From a virus (Duplodnaviria; Heunggongvirae; Uroviricota; Caudoviricetes), in IMG/VR virus record IMGVR_UViG_2778261635_000005: a DNA stretch of 14,947 nucleotides; one strand, given 5' to 3'. Shown here one piece after another: positions 3,309 to 12,710 of this stretch; the first letter of the stretch is position 1; each line of letters opens with the position of its first letter. The position numbers and the translations under genes are program-made. The notes under the pieces are model-generated. The model was not told where the DNA came from, did not search any database, and saw nothing but the letters and a program-made list of their open reading frames with translations.

Positions 3309-3884
3309 CTACGGCAGTGCTGGCCATTCAATATCCTGTGCAGTTGACGTATCAACACGGTTCAGCAATACCCGATACTTTTTCCATGCTTCCAGCAACG
3401 AGATTTCTTCCTCCGTTGCAATTTCCAGATCTGCAGCATCCTGAAGCGGCGCAATATGCTCACTGGCTACCTGCATCAGGCTGTTTTTTGTTTCTTCCGC
3501 CTCCCGGATCCGGAACAGTTTTTCTGCTTCCGTATCCTTCACCCAGGCTGTGCCGTTCCACTTCTGATATTCCCCTCCCGGCGATAACCAGGTAACATTT
3601 TCCGGTAACGGACCGAGTTCAGAAATAAATAACGCGTCGCCGGAAGCCACGTCATAAACCGTTTTACCCCGATGATCTTCAACGAGATGCCACGATGCCT
3701 CATCACTGTTGAAAACAGCCACGAAGCCTGCCGGAATATCTGGCGGTGCAATATCGATACTGTTTGCTGGCAGACCTGTATGAGGCGGAATATATGCGTC
3801 ACCTTCACCAATAAATTCATTAGTTCCGGCCAGCAGATTATAAATTTTTATGGTCCGTGGTTGTTCACTCATTCTGAATGCCAT
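3309..3884 (-). CDS. tfaQ: Tail fibre assembly protein (lambda Tfa-like chaperone)
   Basis: 191-aa [37 protein letters not shown]... recognised as the lambdoid Tfa family; its start overlaps the stop of the upstream tail-fibre ORF (TAATG), as in stf-tfa pairs. Confidence 0.9.
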
Positions 3885-6064
3885 TATGCAAGCCTCACAA
3901 TATAGTTAAATGCGATGTTTTTGACGGTGTTTTCCGCGTTACCAGCAGCGTTAACGGTGATGGTATGTCCATGTGAACCAATCGCAACGGAGTGCGTATG
4001 AGCACCAATACCGACAGTATGTGCGTGTGCACCTGCGCTTGCAGCAGTACCCGATACAGAGTGCGTATGAGCGCCTGCAGAAGAAGTGTTAACACTGTAT
4101 TTAGAATAATCAGGTGATCCACTTCCCGGAGCACCACTGGAACCACCTGAAACAAATGTCATCGAATGGGTATGTGCACCGGCTGAAGCAGCCGTACCGC
4201 TAACACTATGGGTATGCGCACCAGTGTTATTCGTGGATTTAGTGCCGTAATCAAACGACGATGTGGTTTTCGTCCCCAAATCCGTACTGGATACGCTGGC
4301 GCTGTGGGTGTGTGATTTAATGCCGTCCTGTTCCTGAGACAATACGGCTCGATCACTGGCGGGCTTGCCCTTAATCGTCCAGCCACGCATATCAGGGATC
4401 ACGCCTGACGGATAAGCGGCTGCAAGTTTCGGGTAAGCAGATTTGTCAAAAGTCTGCCCCTGCATCAGGGCATAACCAGACGGAACGGTATCTGATGGCC
4501 ACGGGATTGGTGCACCGACTGGATAAAACTCTGCAGGAGGATGAGCCGAGGTGTAAAGCTGCGCCCACGGCGACCAGTTTGCGTCGGTCGTATCCCGTCG
4601 TGAACGAATAAATGCCGGAGCATGAGCACCGCTTGTACCACTCCAGCCGATGAGTAACTCACCTTCGCCAACGGCTGTCATCCCTTTCAGGTGAATGATA
4701 TTTCCATACGCTGTTGGATATCCGTTGTTATACACCTCGTATAACTCAAGACCTGTTGCCCCCTGCGTATTGTCTGTCAGCGCGGTTACCTGAACCACAA
4801 AACGGCGATGACGTCCCGCCTGCACATCCACTGTCGCCACAAGGAAATTAATGCCATCCGGCACACTGCGGGAAGGAACTGGCTCTGCCCGCTGCTCAAG
4901 CAGTTCACTTTTTCGTTGCTCCATGCTGGCACGAGGAAGATAAGGCAATCCCCAGTCGGTGTTGATAACCGCCCTGAGTGTTTCTTCGCTTCCTGTCGCT
5001 TCATACTCCTGTTCTGCAGTCAGTAATTTGTAAACCAGTTGCGCCCAGGTCTGATACGCAGCAGCTGGCCCTTCCATCCAGAAACTGGCGATACGGGAGC
5101 GGCGCGGTTCACCGGAAACGTTGCCGTTACGATCAATGACCTGACCTTCACGCAACCAGACTCCTGCACTATTGAGCTCACGCTTTTTCTCCGCAGTGAT
5201 AATGCCGCTGCAGTGCGGGCAAAGTAGATACGCCGCCTCACTGGCTTTAAAGGGATCCGGTTCATTACGGTAGCCGGTCATGGCATCCATGGCTGGCTGA
5301 AAATATTCACCGCAGTGCGGACATGACCAGTACCAGCGGCGGCGGTCACCACGATTGTAAAGGGAAAGAATACCAGTCGTCGGTGGCGCTTCATGAGGCG
5401 ACTTACGTCGCCATTTGCTGTCGCAGATGTCACGTCCCGGCGAGCTCTCCACCAGAGTCATCCCGGCGGACATAAATGTGGTGGTACGTTTTGAGGCCAG
5501 GGAGAAACCATCACCCTCGCTGTCGATATTCTCCGGAAAACGGTCGTAATCGGTTAAGGCGACAAACCGGTAATCCGACGACGACATAATGTTGACCGAG
5601 GGCCAACCAATTTTAAGGAACGAGCCATCCCTGAACGTCTTATCATGGACATTATTGTCGTTACGACGTGGACTCATTCTTTTCTTTACCGCCGCACTGC
5701 TTCTGAACGTTCTGTCGAGGCGCTTTTTAGAATGCTCGCGGGCCTTATCTTCGGTCATCTGCACAACGAGCATGTCCGAAGGATCGCAAACGATGGTATA
5801 GACAATCCATCCATCGATCAGACCAATGGTCTTCCCTGTTCGCGCAGGACCAACAAAAATCACCGCATCGTATTCACGCGATGCCAGGCAGTTCATGGGC
5901 TCAATGATGTAGGGTGTCAGTTCAGGATCCCATGGCACCGAGTTACCAGCCCCCTTGGGAACACGCATGAATTTTTTAACAGCCTCCGAAATCGGCATGC
6001 GACGTGGTGGGGAAAATCCTGCCGATATGTCCCTTCCCAAATTTCGGGCTGATGAAAAACCCAT
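3884..6064 (-). CDS. stfQ: Chimeric ORF: large terminase (gpA-like) N-terminal about 430 aa fused in frame to a side-tail-fibre C-terminal region
   Basis: 726-aa ORF with strong AGGAGG RBS. The N-terminal part has Walker A GPARTGKT (residues 72-79) and two CPHC motifs (248-251, 282-285) in the lambda gpA arrangement. The C-terminal part has a tail-collar-like block ([23 protein letters not shown]...DMRGW) and seven HxH motifs typical of fibre tips. The gene symbol refers to the tail-fibre portion; the reference annotation may split this ORF differently. Confidence 0.8.
3962..4315 (-). repeat. HxH-motif repeat region encoding the tail-fibre distal tip
   Basis: Seven His-x-His motifs (SHTHS, GAHTHS x4, GAHAHT, GSHGHT) in residues 584-701 of the fusion ORF; the 18-aa block [18 protein letters not shown] occurs twice with clearly different codons. 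Confidence 0.6.
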
Positions 6065-8098: not shown

Positions 8099-8249
8099 AC
8101 CATAACGTCCGGCTTCTCTCACTCCTGAGCCGGACTGCATTGGTTTAATAAAAACCATCAACAATTGTGATTTAGATATTCGGAACCATTCAAATATAAC
8201 AAAACCCCGTAAAAACGAGGTTTATGGATAAATTTTATTATTGAATACA

Positions 8250-8423
8250 TCAGATTAAATTAATCTTGACATCATAGCTTTCAAGACCCGTCATTTTTTC
8301 CCGTGCGGTAAACTGAATACTGGTAACTTCTTTCCCGGTCTTTTTCTTAAGTTCAATAATTTTTTTTGTTATATATTCAGAAATATCTGCTTCTGCTTTT
8401 GTTTTTAAGTTTTCAATATTCAT
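8250..8423 (-). CDS. gnsB: GnsA/GnsB-family small protein
   Basis: Hand-translated 57-aa ORF (M)MNIENLKTKAEADISEYITKKIIELKKKTGKEVTSIQFTAREKMTGLESYDVKINLI with AGAGGA RBS; below the track cutoff. Matches recall of GnsB. A weak hairpin with a T-tail follows on the minus strand (8205-8220). Confidence 0.85.
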   Translation of the reverse strand: MNIENLKTKAEADISEYITKKIIELKKKTGKEVTSIQFTAREKMTGLESYDVKINLI

Positions 8424-8594
8424 CATTTCCTCTTTTAGTCTGTTATGACTTTCCAGTTACACAGTAAGTCGATTATATGGTGCAAACGTGTAAAAGATAA
8501 GATGAAACATCGCAATAATCAACATACGATAGTCTAAATTTTACACAAACAGACAAAGAGAATTTTCCTGAATTATCAATACAATAGCATCAAA

Positions 8595-8825
8595 TCAACT
8601 CAAGAGCCTTATTGCTGCTTCCAGAATTTCTTCTGAAGTAACATGTCGATCCGCGGCTACATAAATGACTTTATGATCTCCGGTCAGAGATGGAAACCCT
8701 GCGGCCATTACAGTAAGGTGTGTTTTTTCGCCATTTGGATATTCACGCATGATGGTGTTAACTCCAGTCATCGCTGGCACTACCACTGCTGGTTCAGAGT
8801 TAAAAAAAACTATGATTTTTTTCAT
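8595..8825 (-). CDS. ynfN: Hypothetical small protein (ynfN-like); start uncertain
   Basis: Track ORF 8595..8867 begins at a TTG; in-frame ATGs at 8825 (MKKIIVFF..., 76 aa), 8771 and 8750 (MREYPNG..., 51 aa). None has a strong SD. Coding-like throughout. Position between cspI and gnsB matches K-12 ynfN; symbol given on positional grounds. Confidence 0.5.
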   Translation of the reverse strand: MKKIIVFFNSEPAVVVPAMTGVNTIMREYPNGEKTHLTVMAAGFPSLTGDHKVIYVAADRHVTSEEILEAAIRLLS

Positions 8826-8870
8826 GATGTTACCGTAGTATGTGAGTATCCATCGAATAGATACCAAGCA

Positions 8871-8889
8871 AAAAAGCTCCCGAAGGAGC
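8871..8889 (-). terminator. Intrinsic terminator downstream of cspI
   Basis: On the minus strand GGCUCC-UUCG-GGAGC (5-bp GC-rich stem, UUCG tetraloop) followed by UUUUU. Confidence 0.45.
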
Positions 8890-9096
8890 CTTCATTTTCA
8901 CTTTTTTAAATCCAACGACAGACGGCTGGCATTTAAGTATTGTGAAATATTATCAAATGTAATCATCATTGATTTACAAAAGATACATTTTGCCCCGAAA
9001 GGATTCATGTCAGAAACATCAAAAGATGATGTTCTATACTGGGAACCATGACAACACGGGCATCTAAAGTGAATATGGTTTGTAATATTGTCTACC

Positions 9097-9309
9097 TCAA
9101 AGCGCCACTACATGAACAGCGGCAGGACCTTTAGGTCCGTTCTCAATACCAAATTCAACTTCCTGATTCTCAGTTAATGTTTTGAAATCGTTGCTCTGAA
9201 TTGCTGAGAAATGGACAAACACATCTTTGCTGCCATCTTTCGGCGTGATGAAACCAAAACCTTTTTCAGGGTTAAACCATTTCACTAAACCAGTCATTTT
9301 GTTAGACAT
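9097..9309 (-). CDS. cspI: Cold shock protein, CspA family
   Basis: 70-aa [41 protein letters not shown]... with RNP1 (KGFGFI) and RNP2 (VFVHF) motifs; AAGG RBS 7 nt upstream. Confidence 0.95.
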
Positions 9310-9418
9310 AATTATTACCTTTTGAAGAAATTAGCCCTTGGGCAGAATGGTCCGAAAAAAAATATCAGAGAGAAAAACCAACAAGGAAATCTCAAGAGGT
9401 ACAAATAATAAAATTATA
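9310..9418 (-). promoter_or_regulatory. cspI promoter and 5' UTR (candidate -10 TATAAT at 9418-9413)
   Basis: Perfect TATAAT about 100 nt upstream of the cspI ATG on the minus strand; CspA-family genes typically have long 5' UTRs. No clear -35. Confidence 0.35.
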
Positions 9419-9672
9419 ACAATGACTGCTTCAGATAAATTTGTAACAAACCAGAACACCATTAACGCATGATTAACCACCCATAGCAAGGATTACTTTT
9501 GTAAAGAAAAACACAGCAATGAAAGAATAGCTTTATTTATTAATAATAACGTGTCATTCTGATTAAGACCTTTTATCTTACCCTTAAGATTTCAGGAATT
9601 TTGGCTCATGGAAGAGTCCTTTTTATTTAAATTTTACATTCCGCGATGTAAATGTTCCGATTTAATATTACC

Positions 9673-10696
<1,024 letters not shown>

Positions 10697-11447: not shown

Positions 11448-11618
11448 ATGTCAGAACGTAAAGACTCAAAATCACGCCGTAATTATCTCGTTAAATGTTC
11501 CTGCCCAAACTGCACCCAAGAGTCAGAACACAGTTTTTCAAGAGTACAAAAAGGTGCCCTTTTGATCTGCCCTCATTGCAACAAAGTATTCCAGACAAAT
11601 CTTAAAGCTGTAGCCTGA
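11448..11618 (+). CDS. Small zinc-ribbon protein (56 aa)
   Basis: In-frame ATG within track ORF 11397..11618 with AGGAAAAG RBS 7 nt upstream; product MSERKDSKSRRNYLVKCSCPNCTQESEHSFSRVQKGALLICPHCNKVFQTNLKAVA carries CxxC...CxxC. Oriented against the late operon. Confidence 0.5.
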   Translation: MSERKDSKSRRNYLVKCSCPNCTQESEHSFSRVQKGALLICPHCNKVFQTNLKAVA

Positions 11619-11699: not shown

Positions 11700-11981
11700 T
11701 GAGATTGTGGTGCTTTTTGTGGGAGTCATCCACTTACGCACTTTGTTTTGCCATGCCAGCAGTTAGCTTCTGCTGTAAAACTATTCATGCAGCAAACCTG
11801 CACTTCACCACAATGGTTAGCATACTTTTCCTGATTAAGATTTTGCCAAATATGCTGGCCATTGTTTCATGTATTGGACCTCCTTAATTTTTATTAAAGA
11901 AATCCAATATTCACTACTCTGTCCGTATCTCTACTCAGGCATCAGCCTTCTTCGTTATCGTATACAGACGAGCGATGAATT

Positions 11982-12197
11982 TTAATCAGTAATGATGACA
12001 TTTGCTGCTGCAGGACCTTTAGCACCACTCTCTATAGAGAAGGTAACCTTTTGACCTTCAAATAAGGTTCGATAATTATCATTCTGAATCGCAGAAAAAT
12101 GCACAAACACATCTTTACTACCATCAACAGGAGAAATAAAGCCGAAACCTTTATCAGCGTTAAACCATTTTACTAAACCAGTCATTTTATTTGACAT
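11982..12197 (-). CDS. cspB: Cold shock protein, CspA family
   Basis: 71-aa [41 protein letters not shown]... with RNP motifs; AAGGA RBS 7 nt upstream. Confidence 0.95.
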
Positions 12198-12360
12198 TCT
12201 ACATTCCTTAACTTGAGCCTTTCGGCATAAATGGTTTGCATAACAGAAACGACTTCGTACTTAATTGGAGAGACTCAAAGAAGGAATAAGTGAATAACAC
12301 CTGAAATGAGAACTGCTTTAGTAAACTACTTCGTATATCGTCTGTTCTTCAAACCGACGC
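12198..12360 (-). promoter_or_regulatory. cspB promoter and long 5' UTR (candidate -10 TTAATG near 12359-12354)
   Basis: About 150-nt leader between a cspA-like -10 (TTAATG, preceded by TTGCTT at about 18 bp) and the ATG; consistent with the long 5' UTRs of cold-inducible csp genes. Confidence 0.35.
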
Positions 12361-12497
12361 AATCATTAACGCATAGTTGAACATATGAAGCAATGTTTAT
12401 TTTAGACATCCAGCCATCTTCAACCCCATCAAAAAACTATAGCTTTCTTCAGGAACGTGTGTATAGTGCGCCAAGTTATCAGTATTAAGGAATTTTT

Positions 12498-12710
12498 TTG
12501 TCCCGTAAAATGACAGGAATTGTCAAAACCTTTGACGGCAAAAGCGGCAAGGGTCTTATCACCCCATCCGATGGTCGTATCGATGTCCAGCTTCATGTTT
12601 CAGCGCTCAATCTCCGCGATGCAGAAGAAATTACCACCGGATTACGCGTGGAATTTTGCCGGATAAATGGTCTGCGTGGCCCTTCAGCTGCCAATGTTTA
12701 CCTTTCATGA
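12498..12710 (+). CDS. cspF: Cold shock protein homolog, CspA family
   Basis: 70-aa track [43 protein letters not shown]...; initiates at TTG with AAGGA 7 nt upstream; divergent from cspB. Confidence 0.9.

Follow-up and report, generated by a model that had tools for sequence, protein, structure and literature searches.

The region between the lysis genes and the packaging genes of the window (the whole 14,947-nt stretch of phage DNA that was analysed) is a cassette of cold-shock cargo genes already annotated in Qin-type prophages of E. coli, and comprises cspI, ynfQ, ynfR, ynfN and gnsB. The reading that best explains the data as a whole is that Qin-type lambdoid prophages carry here, between their lysis cassette and their packaging genes, a self-contained cold-shock moron on the minus strand, and we consider this likely to be correct. 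The five genes are annotated in K-12 and in RefSeq, and both their cold induction and their moron-type expression have been published; the value of the present analysis is corrective, with little to offer by way of discovery. The corrections are that the gene count is five and not three, that the start of ynfN is now fixed, that the truncated ynfN of K-12 is explained, and that a paralogy of ynfN with the chromosomal ymcE is false.

An earlier note on this DNA had described three small co-oriented genes, namely cspI, a middle ORF and gnsB. These three are real and lie where they had been placed, all on the minus strand, the middle ORF at 8595-8825/8867 and gnsB at 8250-8423/8426, but RefSeq and K-12 annotate five frames, and ynfQ and ynfR had been missed. 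The statement that each gene has its own hairpin terminators is wrong: only two sites with a hairpin and T-run were found, one after ynfQ and not directly after cspI, and one after gnsB, the latter beyond the span of 8250-9420 that had been given for the module. That span is also incomplete on its upstream side, where a leader of the cspA type and a putative promoter extend the unit to ~9489 (Table 1).

Table 1. Positions in the window of the genes and putative control elements of the cold-shock module.
Feature	Position	Strand	Basis and details
Putative sigma-70 promoter of cspI	9461-9489	-	-35 TTGCTA (9489-9484), 17-nt spacer, -10 GTTAAT (9466-9461); read by eye
Predicted cspA-type thermoregulatory 5'UTR of cspI	9310-9455	-	~146 nt; Rfam RF01766
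cspI, 70-aa CspA-family cold-shock protein	9097-9309	-	Pfam CSD E 1.6e-31 over residues 5-69; RefSeq cspI
ynfQ, 62-aa YmcF-like protein with CxxC...CxxC	8898-9086	-	RefSeq/K-12 annotation; translation; Pfam PF23641
Intrinsic terminator hairpin, GGCTCC-TTCG-GGAGC and T6 run	8869-8892	-	directly after ynfQ, inside ynfR; RNAfold
ynfR, 21-codon ORF	8830-8895	-	RefSeq/K-12 annotation; translation
ynfN, intact 76-aa form from first ATG (8825)	8595-8825	-	RefSeq WP_000720962.1 (76 aa); PHROG 3425 E 7e-54
T8 homopolymer run, ynfN codons 6-9	8802-8809	-	pairwise alignment, window vs K-12 MG1655
Conserved non-coding block TGTTGATTATTGCGATGTTTC in ynfN-gnsB spacer	8504-8524	-	homologous to interior of chromosomal 'ymcE' ORF
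gnsB, 57 aa, GnsA/GnsB family	8250-8423	-	Pfam PF08178 GnsAB E 3.3e-35; RefSeq annotation
Terminator hairpin after gnsB	8202-8223	-	between convergent gnsB(-) and ydfO(+); scan 9 pairs and T-run; RNAfold centroid -10.8 kcal/mol

The host element is a defective Qin-type prophage inserted at ydfJ, and the module occupies the position expected of a moron, between Rz and the terminase genes or cos. As the earlier note had proposed, rzpQ/Rz (9673-10170) lies on one side of this cargo slot, and genes for a DUF1441 small-terminase-like protein and the large terminase on the other. The same arrangement is seen in the bona fide phage 2H10, in which the module lies at 44.8-45.9 kb of a 46.3-kb linear genome, at its far right end and directly after an Rz-like spanin. 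Of 5426 complete E. coli genomes, 2153 contain the module, and besides 2H10 it was found in phages Tritos, mEp460_ev081, HannyBb and PhiR42_1; it adjoins two different terminase types, GpA and TerL+HNH, and loci with 100% identity to it are annotated in RefSeq as cspI, ynfQ/ymcF, ynfR, ynfN and gnsB. A csp gene and a ymcF-like gene lie upstream of gns in every gns locus found (23/23), and all 12 type-B loci that were cleanly assembled (L013-L022, L024, L025) carry ynfN, including those beside different terminase types. Antisense to the module, two ORFs on the plus strand (8643-8909 and 8842-9051) were considered as genes and set aside, having no homologue or annotation in any record seen.

With regard to the control signals of its own that a moron should carry, the terminators were found by scan and RNAfold, and a promoter for cspI was recognised by eye, downstream of an AT-rich tract. 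This candidate promoter was not called by a simple consensus scan of the window; it is backed by conservation, since a 13-mer around its -10 (ATCATGCGTTAAT) has an exact copy in the cspG promoter region and is seen in cspB too, and by the start of the Rfam match at 9455, 6 nt downstream of the putative -10. The match in question, to the cspA thermoregulator RF01766, covers 9070-9455 on the minus strand and the full model (1-428) at 112.8 bits, vs a gathering score of 78 (E 1.1e-28), and cspI is predicted on this basis to have a long structured 5'UTR of the cspA type. A second copy of RF01766 is present in the window on cspB (158.8 bits). The CspI translation contains both RNP1 (KGFGFI) and RNP2 (VFVHF) of the cold-shock domain, and induction of CspI on temperature downshift was reported by Wang, Yamanaka and Inouye (1999), as cited in PMC7406224.

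The second gene, ynfQ, starts at an ATT codon 10 nt past the cspI stop codon, which its Shine-Dalgarno sequence (GAGG) overlaps. YnfQ matches the Pfam YmcF-like family over its full length (residues 1-62, E 1.7e-32; the model has 62 positions) and has both of its cysteine pairs (CPCC and CIFC). The ATT start is invariant in ynfQ/ymcF-like genes (15/15 loci), and placement right after csp, the ATT start and a Shine-Dalgarno sequence over the csp stop are found together in the same 15 loci and in a distant locus (L010). No ATG, GTG or TTG occurs in frame in this lineage before residue 27 of ynfQ, yet the variable sites of codons 2-26 split 8:3:22 by codon position.

Directly downstream of ynfQ is the first terminator, for which RNAfold gives -14.9 kcal/mol (z -2.6) and which the scan reports on the plus strand in the window. 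The scan also finds an equivalent hairpin and T-run at the corresponding position of K-12 cspG-ymcF and of Citrobacter braakii, and the hairpin aligns in 7/7 sequences (MAFFT) and is conserved in all locus types. The frame of ynfR crosses it, with an ATG 2 nt past the ynfQ stop and a stop codon 4 nt before the ynfN ATG. SPA-tagged YnfR was strongly detected only after cold shock (PMC6001520). A conserved YnfR peptide was considered and rejected, as a 92%-identical variant (L016) has an in-frame stop and the Citrobacter modules have no homologue, but instead a different short ORF that starts in the hairpin loop; since the peptide is not conserved, any role of ynfR would lie in the act of translation.

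For ynfN, the presence of three in-frame ATGs (M1 at 8825, M19 and M26) and of only a weak Shine-Dalgarno sequence (ACGGTAACATCATG) is confirmed, but the uncertainty about its start that had been drawn from this no longer holds. Homologues of YnfN at 52-76% identity are all ~76 aa long; their N-terminal motif MKKxxVFFN is conserved down to 52% identity, with K3, F7, F8 and N9 invariant, in contrast to the non-conserved M19 and M26. Sorted by codon position, the variable sites of codons 1-25 fall 10:4:17, and the AF2 model (pLDDT 87.9) has five strands and a helix, of which strand 1 is formed by residues 2-7. The conserved N-terminus, the non-conserved internal methionines, the codon-position bias, the N-terminal strand in the model and the alignment with K-12 settle the start as the first ATG, for a predicted product of 76 aa. 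The same alignment accounts for the 51-aa ynfN annotated in K-12, which has T7 instead of T8 in codons 6-9 and therefore a frameshift; in the window the run is T8 and the 76-aa ORF is intact. The gene is followed by no terminator-like structure (z = +0.5).

Similarity searches pointed to no function for YnfN. No match was obtained in Pfam, NCBIfam or PADLOC, a PHROGs search returned unknown-function families only, and Foldseek with the AF2 model gave nothing at E <= 0.001 in the PDB, where the best value was 0.29, or in BFVD, where an uncharacterised protein came closest at 6e-3. When 1.84 billion representatives were searched with a profile, the family was linked to no named one, and only 43 matches had E <= 0.001, those with E <= 1e-10 all being short (48-111 aa).

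The earlier note also proposed that the module is paralogous to a chromosomal csp-ymcE-gnsA arrangement and that a three-gene csp, ymcE-like and gns unit had moved as one block, ynfN being the paralogue of ymcE. Colinear paralogy with the chromosome is borne out for cspI together with ynfQ and for gnsB, and the flanks give this proposal its appeal: window positions 9313-8950 share 74% nucleotide identity with cspG and ymcF, positions 8441-8249 share 73% with gnsA, the corresponding proteins are 79% (CspI/CspG), 66% (YnfQ/YmcF) and 67% (GnsB/GnsA) identical, and YnfN and YmcE are both annotated as 76 aa in the same slot. It is the middle gene that fails. Alignment with the cspG-ymcE-gnsA locus revealed no similarity between the middle ORF and the gene between cspG and gnsA by BLASTP, Pfam or blastn: YnfN against YmcE gives E = 36, YnfN misses the Pfam family YmcE_antitoxin (PF15939), which YmcE itself matches at 1.6e-56, and blastn gives no match for the 508-bp segment in the middle. 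Homologues in the same order are thus found for cspI, ynfQ and gnsB but not for ynfN or ynfR vs ymcE, and transfer of the three genes as one block, with ynfN descended alongside ymcE, is very improbable.

The 'ymcE' stretch aligns instead with the prophage terminator and the non-coding ynfN-gnsB spacer, and the shared unit is therefore best described as a backbone of csp, a ymcF-like gene, a terminator, a spacer and gns, in which ynfN and the ORF upstream of it appear, from the alignments, as a prophage-only indel of ~300 nt. The conserved middle gene of both loci is ynfQ/ymcF. The spacer extends for 171 nt from the ynfN stop (8595) to the gnsB start (8423), and within its conserved block GATTATTG is invariant across seven loci (MAFFT). 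In shuffle tests the K-12 'ymcE' region scored z 9.3-9.9 against the Citrobacter spacers, a value that 0/500 shuffles reached, and z 2.8 against the Qin spacer, which 11/500 shuffles reached. As a coding sequence ymcE lacks third-position bias, with variable sites distributed 7:7:6 vs 4:3:19 in cspG, 3:1:12 in ymcF and 2:1:13 in gnsA; E. albertii and two further lineages have lost its ATG, and in two a stop or frameshift breaks it. These features make it doubtful that ymcE encodes a protein and, as a consequence, weaken the case for the listed ymcE-gnsA toxin-antitoxin pair and for calling GnsB a 'toxin', as Pfam and RefSeq do.

The spacer block was considered as a gns promoter and rejected: TTGAAT-17-TATAAC can be drawn, and the consensus scan calls none in the window, K-12 or Citrobacter. 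A perfect TATAAT with a poor -35 is present at 8472-8477 of the spacer, so that a separate gnsB promoter is possible. Translation of gnsB would begin at the second of two adjacent ATGs, preceded by a Shine-Dalgarno sequence AGAGG at 8429-8433. GnsB aligns with GnsA from residue 1 and, in the PDB, matches crystal structures of GnsA (4XO1/4XO2) with E 5e-20, which places it in the GnsA/GnsB family.

Family names such as 'GnsA/GnsB toxin' and 'addiction module toxin' in Pfam and RefSeq, the inclusion of ymcE-gnsA among E. coli toxin-antitoxin systems in reviews, and the position of ynfN directly upstream of gnsB could together be taken to mean that ynfN-gnsB is a type II pair, with GnsB as toxin and the upstream gene, by analogy with ymcE-gnsA, as antitoxin. 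The analogy is undone by the lack of any relationship between YnfN and YmcE and by the missing coding signature of ymcE described above, and the loci themselves do not behave as a pair. Between the two genes lies a spacer with a conserved non-coding block, where toxin-antitoxin genes usually overlap or are closely spaced. The chromosomal type A loci and Citrobacter sp. NCU1 (L023) have gns but no ynfN, and the distant locus L010 has a ynfN-like gene without gns (csp, ymcF-like, ynfN-like, then a terminator). There is no PADLOC match, and plasmid-borne gnsA or gnsB rescues growth in the literature instead of stopping it: pCA-gnsA and pCA-gnsB restored low-temperature growth of fadR relA mutants, and in the same study gnsA expression was measured to restore 16:1 and 18:1 levels. 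Overexpression of gnsB was found by Sugai (2001), according to a citing paper, to raise unsaturated fatty acids. A toxin-antitoxin function for ynfN-gnsB has, in our judgement, hardly any chance of being right.

Published expression data bear directly on the status of the module as a moron. Tritos, a prophage of LF82 that carries an identical module, expresses CspI 93x and YnfN 27x above prophage background in lysogen RNA-seq, and a cargo (moron) module in the slot between Rz and the packaging genes, transcribed 27-93x above background in the LF82 lysogen, is supported. On AZT induction, cspI, ynfQ and ynfN rise 6.5-, 5.9- and 5.8-fold, with matching SspA dependence values of 38, 42 and 51, and in K-12 the cspI and ynfN mRNAs change together during long-term stationary phase (PMC7406224), a co-variation which does not amount to proof of a single transcript. 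The gene gnsB is absent from the listed Tritos morons and from the AZT top genes, so it may be expressed separately or weakly.

These data also speak to the alternative that the genes have no autonomous expression and are distal members of a Q-dependent late operon, relevant only in lytic growth. They are indeed co-oriented with Q (ydfT), the holin, the lysozyme and Rz, and since Q-modified polymerase would read through both hairpins, late transcription is likely as well. A late operon as the sole source of expression is, however, improbable given the full-length cspA-type 5'UTR and promoter-like site between Rz and cspI, the high levels of CspI and YnfN in the LF82 lysogen, where the neighbouring lysis genes are not listed, and the cold-shock and stationary-phase regulation reported for K-12 with its defective Qin prophage.

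In the preferred reading of the region as a self-contained moron, the putative sigma-70 promoter would drive an mRNA with a cspA-type 5'UTR, which should favour expression at low temperature. The first product would be CspI, acting as an RNA chaperone, and the second YnfQ, a zinc-ribbon-like small protein of the YmcF family, translated from the AUU 10 nt downstream of cspI. Some transcripts would end at the intrinsic terminator after ynfQ, and those that read through would carry ynfR, then ynfN, the 171-nt spacer and gnsB, the unit being closed by the second terminator after gnsB. With its weak Shine-Dalgarno sequence, ynfN may be translated by coupling to ynfR, and read-through of the hairpin could be assisted by ribosomes that translate ynfQ/ynfR or, in the cold, by antitermination through Csp. 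Carriage of the module may help the lysogen in the cold.

Considering how the prophage and chromosomal loci came to share a backbone, a joint reading can be put forward, which is plausible but held only tentatively. The prophage module would be a complete cold-adaptation cassette, and the chromosomal cspH-cspG-ymcF-gnsA island a stripped Qin-like prophage remnant, left when the lysis cassette was lost through a deletion between the two csp genes of the phage, and likewise lacking ynfN; 'ymcE' would be a terminator and a conserved regulatory spacer and not a gene, and ynfN would be gated by a terminator inside a translated short ORF, its read-through needing translation or Csp antitermination in the cold. 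The ynfN family is narrow and a fold-orphan, and in the loci examined it is seen only downstream of csp and a ymcF-like gene.

The opposite direction, in which the chromosomal cspH-cspG-ymcF-gnsA island was taken up by a phage that acquired ynfN afterwards, is compatible with the fact that two-way similarity alone cannot give direction, and with the fixation of the island across Escherichia, E. albertii included, which indicates that the island is old. It accounts less well for the composition of the cspG locus. Upstream of cspG, a 230-nt stretch of promoter and UTR, and cspH farther out, match prophage cspB/cspF (77%); the downstream side matches cspI-ynfQ (67%), and neither side matches the other partner. 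One deletion between two prophage csp genes, with loss of the lysis cassette, yields the chromosomal layout in a single step, whereas the reverse requires a duplication and an insertion. In addition, both chromosomal (non-prophage) layouts lack ynfN, a count of only two layouts. A chimeric cspG coding region was considered, since its informative sites lean towards cspB on the left (10:5) and towards cspI on the right (10:22), and rejected, as the maximum chi-square test gives no significant crossover within the coding sequence (p = 0.23); this is a caveat to the mosaic argument, and the mosaic of cspG is proposed at flank level only. On balance, capture of the island by a phage is rather unlikely.

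Among known systems, the closest is the Qin prophage of K-12 (cspI b1552, ynfQ b4724, ynfR b4749, ynfN b1551, gnsB b1550), which has the same genes, order and spacing, is 99.75% identical over the 1600-nt module and shares its flanks, with rzpQ upstream and ydfO downstream. Apart from the frameshifted ynfN of K-12, the two elements differ in that the window prophage keeps part of the terminase genes that are absent from K-12 Qin and has an internal deletion of its own at window position 4785. The chromosomal cspH / cspG-ymcF-ymcE-gnsA locus (K-12 1,050,963-1,052,240) shares with the module the csp gene, the ATT-started ymcF-like gene, the GGCTCC hairpin terminator, the spacer block TTGATTATTGA and a gns gene with an AGAGG Shine-Dalgarno sequence. 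It differs in having neither ynfN nor ynfR, in its 227-nt middle part annotated as ymcE, in its non-phage context and in an upstream half that resembles prophage cspB/cspF and not cspI. In relation to the cspA thermosensor family RF01766 (cspA, cspB, cspG), cspI matches over both UTR and coding sequence; its UTR is more divergent than that of cspB, to which it is 64% identical over 122 aligned nt, and gave no global alignment with that of cspG.

The bor gene of phage lambda is a lambdoid moron in the Rz-to-cos slot. Together with the Tritos morons of LF82, it represents a class to which the module is similar in its slot, in its terminators and putative promoter and, as seen in Tritos, in expression in the lysogen. 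Unlike lambdoid morons that encode a surface or virulence protein, the module described here carries cold-shock and membrane-lipid genes as its cargo, and it is a multi-gene unit with an internal terminator.

The 14.9-kb window is an E. coli Qin-type lambdoid prophage adjoining ydfJ, and its best whole-window matches are 99% identical. On the minus strand, from right to left, it carries ydfT (a Q-like antiterminator), cspF/cspB, a holin gene, ydfR, the rrrQ lysozyme gene and the Rz-like rzpQ, followed on the same strand by cspI, ynfQ (ymcF-like), ynfR, ynfN and gnsB; beyond gnsB lie the convergent ydfO, a DUF1441 small-terminase-like gene and the large terminase gene. The slot proposed for this cargo, between the lysis and packaging genes, is borne out, and in the sequenced phage 2H10, whose linear genome is 46.3 kb long, the module lies at 44.8-45.9 kb, right after the spanin. 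The ynfN-bearing module adjoins two different terminase types, so its movement does not depend on that of the packaging module. Many RefSeq chromosomes match the 8100-9700 segment at 100% identity, and of 5426 complete E. coli genomes 2153 carry at least part of it. The prophage itself is defective: an internal deletion, with its junction at position 4785, has fused a tail-fibre fragment to the large terminase gene midway along that gene, and, with the portal and head-protease genes of related prophages missing, the prophage cannot package. In the pinQ/tfaQ part, 3343-3541 on the minus strand matches Rfam IS009 (RF02111) over the full length of the model, with 221 bits.

The three co-oriented genes described in the earlier note were found where it placed them, on the minus strand, although its description needs correcting to five frames, as the annotated ynfQ and ynfR were overlooked, and to two terminator-like hairpins in place of one per gene. 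Folding 3' of the middle gene, ynfN, is no better than that of shuffled sequence. The hairpin 3' of gnsB may act as a bidirectional terminator. Nor does the unit end upstream at 9420: it begins well beyond, with a cspA thermoregulator and a promoter-like site, the latter having an exact 13-mer in common with the cspG promoter region.

Features of the cold-shock module and of the K-12 chromosomal locus L002 (NC_000913.3)
Feature	Position	Strand	Basis or remark
promoter-like site	9489-9461		TTGCTA-17-GTTAAT
cspA thermoregulator	9070-9455		Rfam, 112.8 bits (gathering score 78)
cspI	9097-9309	-	Pfam CSD, E 1.6e-31
ynfQ	8898-9086	-	annotated frame, translation
ynfR	8830-8895	-	annotated frame, translation
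terminator-like hairpin	~8869-8892		-14.9 kcal/mol
ynfN (middle ORF)	8825 (M1) to 8595 (3' end)	-	in-frame ATGs M1, M19, M26
conserved non-coding core	8504-8524		upstream of gnsB
gnsB	8250-8423	-	Pfam GnsAB, E 3.3e-35
terminator-like hairpin	8202-8223		between convergent gnsB (-) and ydfO (+)
ymcE	L002 4848-5078		outside the window

The frames from cspI to ynfN are tightly packed, with spacings of 10, 2 and 4 nt. ynfQ, of 62 codons, starts at an ATT 10 nt past the cspI stop, its Shine-Dalgarno sequence GAGG overlaps that stop, and its product, which has two CxxC pairs, is a full-length Pfam YmcF-like match (E 1.7e-32). The ATT start was invariant in all 15 loci examined. No in-frame ATG, GTG or TTG precedes residue 27 in this lineage, and despite this the N-terminal part is coding, since variable sites in codons 2-26 are split 8:3:22 over codon positions 1, 2 and 3. 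YnfQ also gives a weak, below-cutoff match to the NCBIfam ECs_2282 CxxC family (E 0.0024). In prophages L005-L009, which carry a YnfN homologue of 76% identity (P0012), small YnfU-family CxxC proteins are found repeatedly beside the csp modules; examples are L005 2431-2604 and 5051-5215, and ynfU lies in the window at about 11448-11618. Distant kinship between these two zinc-ribbon small-protein families is possible.

The start of ynfN had been left uncertain, on account of its three alternative ATGs and lack of a strong Shine-Dalgarno sequence; both features are confirmed, yet four lines of evidence place the start at the first ATG, giving 76 aa. Homologues of 52-76% identity (from Citrobacter and others) all have a length of about 76 aa, with K3, F7, F8 and N9 invariant and M19 and M26 replaced in several. 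The split for codons 1-25 (10:4:17) is similar to that for the remaining codons (13:7:37), and the AlphaFold model (pLDDT 87.9) consists of a five-strand sheet and a C-terminal helix, with residues 2-7 forming strand 1. Finally, a run of eight T residues at 8802-8809 (codons 6-9) in the window and most RefSeq strains is seven in K-12 Qin (L003), and it is because this single-base deletion breaks the frame that K-12 ynfN is annotated as 51 aa; the K-12 gene is thus a frameshifted remnant of the 76-aa gene. The ynfR ATG lies 2 nt past the ynfQ stop and its own stop 4 nt ahead of the ynfN ATG, an arrangement that suggests translation of ynfN by coupling to ynfR. YnfR-SPA has been seen after cold shock (PMC6001520). 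The peptide is not conserved, a 92%-identical variant containing a stop codon, and the Citrobacter modules examined have no ynfR homologue and instead a different short ORF running from the hairpin loop to the ynfN ATG.

YnfN has no match in Pfam, NCBIfam or PADLOC, it matches two PHROGs, neither with an assigned function, and neither PDB nor BFVD contains a fold that matches its model at E <= 0.001. When 1.84 billion representatives were searched with a profile, only 43 relatives came up at E <= 0.001, and every one with E <= 1e-10 is a short protein of 48-111 aa. In every locus examined, a csp and a ymcF-like gene lie upstream of the ynfN-type gene. This includes L010 (Logan SRR19237017, 3532-4300, beside icd), a distant relative of the module, with csp, the same ATT-initiated ymcF-like gene 3' of it, a ynfN-like gene (60% identity) with a terminator directly 3', and no gns.

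In the most likely working, the cspI promoter and cspA-type leader would give cold-favoured CspI and, by close coupling, YnfQ, the conserved terminator would limit distal expression, and read-through transcripts would carry ynfR, ynfN and probably gnsB. Read-through of the hairpin may be tied to translation or to Csp antitermination, and the module may confer a fitness benefit. Published expression data fit this picture. In the LF82 lysogen, whose Tritos prophage carries a module 100% identical to that of the window, CspI stood at 93x and YnfN at 27x over prophage background; cspI, ynfQ and ynfN responded near-identically to AZT and to SspA loss, and in long-term stationary phase cspI and ynfN vary together. 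Measurements showed unsaturated fatty-acid levels restored by gnsA expression, and for gnsB this effect is cited from Sugai 2001; such an effect makes functional sense beside a cold-shock RNA chaperone.

Considering the proposal that three genes moved as a block paralogous to the K-12 chromosomal cspH/cspG-ymcF-ymcE-gnsA region, the claim holds for the flanks and fails for the middle gene. By blastn, window 9313-8950 matches cspG and ymcF at 74% and 8441-8249 matches gnsA at 73%, and the 508-bp segment between has no match in the chromosomal locus. YnfN has no similarity to YmcE (E = 36) and no match to Pfam YmcE_antitoxin, so the expected resemblance to the gene between cspG and gnsA was not found. 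In a seven-locus alignment a hairpin terminator 3' of the ymcF-like gene is common to all, the prophage versions have ~300 extra nt after it, comprising a short ORF and ynfN, and 3' of these a block, AACCTnTTGATTATTGAnTCTTTC, is again common to all seven. The conserved unit is therefore a backbone of csp, ymcF-like gene, terminator, spacer and gns, with ynfN as an indel. The AACCTnTTGATTATTGAnTCTTTC block is non-coding ynfN-gnsB spacer in the prophage modules and lies inside the 'ymcE' ORF on the chromosome; in a shuffle test, K-12 versus Citrobacter spacers gave z 9.3-9.9 and K-12 versus Qin z 2.8. A core, TTGATTATTGA, is conserved in these seven loci of Escherichia and Citrobacter ~80-100 nt upstream of gnsA/gnsB, and a simple sigma-70 scan calls no promoter there.

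The sequence of ymcE corresponds to terminator plus conserved non-coding spacer. Across Escherichia lineages its variable sites are split 7:7:6, without third-position bias, in contrast to cspG (4:3:19), ymcF (3:1:12) and gnsA (2:1:13) in the same comparison; in place of its ATG, three lineages (E. albertii and two other Escherichia) have AGG or ATA, and a stop interrupts its frame in one lineage and a frameshift in another. It is probably not protein-coding and not maintained as a protein. This lack of a coding signature lessens the case for the 'GnsA toxin / YmcE antitoxin' label as well as for the analogy by which YnfN would be the antitoxin of GnsB, a reading also at odds with the 171-nt spacer between ynfN and gnsB, the lack of strict co-occurrence of ynfN and gns, and the rescue of growth in the cold by gnsA and gnsB plasmids. 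Among 23 gns loci recovered from contigs, one genome per species, a csp and a ymcF-like gene lie upstream of gns in all 23. Loci of the prophage type, which have ynfN, are found in E. coli, Shigella, E. ruysiae and several Citrobacter species, and loci of the chromosomal type, which have 'ymcE', in Escherichia and Shigella. A single chromosomal locus from Citrobacter (L023) combines a GnsB-like gene with a partial ymcE-like stretch and lacks ynfN.

The window's divergent cspF/cspB pair, whose cspB carries a second cspA thermoregulator (158.8 bits), and its intergenic region share 77% identity over 623 nt with chromosomal cspH/cspG (window 11966-12706, comprising cspB 5'UTR, intergenic region and cspF, against L002 3968-4562). 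On the upstream side of cspG, the adjoining 230 nt resemble cspB (77%) and not cspI; on its downstream side, the adjoining 200 nt resemble cspI-ynfQ (67%) and not cspB. A crossover inside the csp coding region does not reach significance (p = 0.23). One deletion between two prophage csp genes, with loss of the lysis cassette, would yield the chromosomal layout, which suggests that the island came from a Qin-like prophage in this way, a direction of descent that we infer from sequence comparison. The module is real but ordinary, being the annotated and published cold-shock moron of Qin-type prophages, and its proteins share 79% (CspI/CspG), 66% (YnfQ/YmcF) and 67% (GnsB/GnsA) identity with their chromosomal counterparts.
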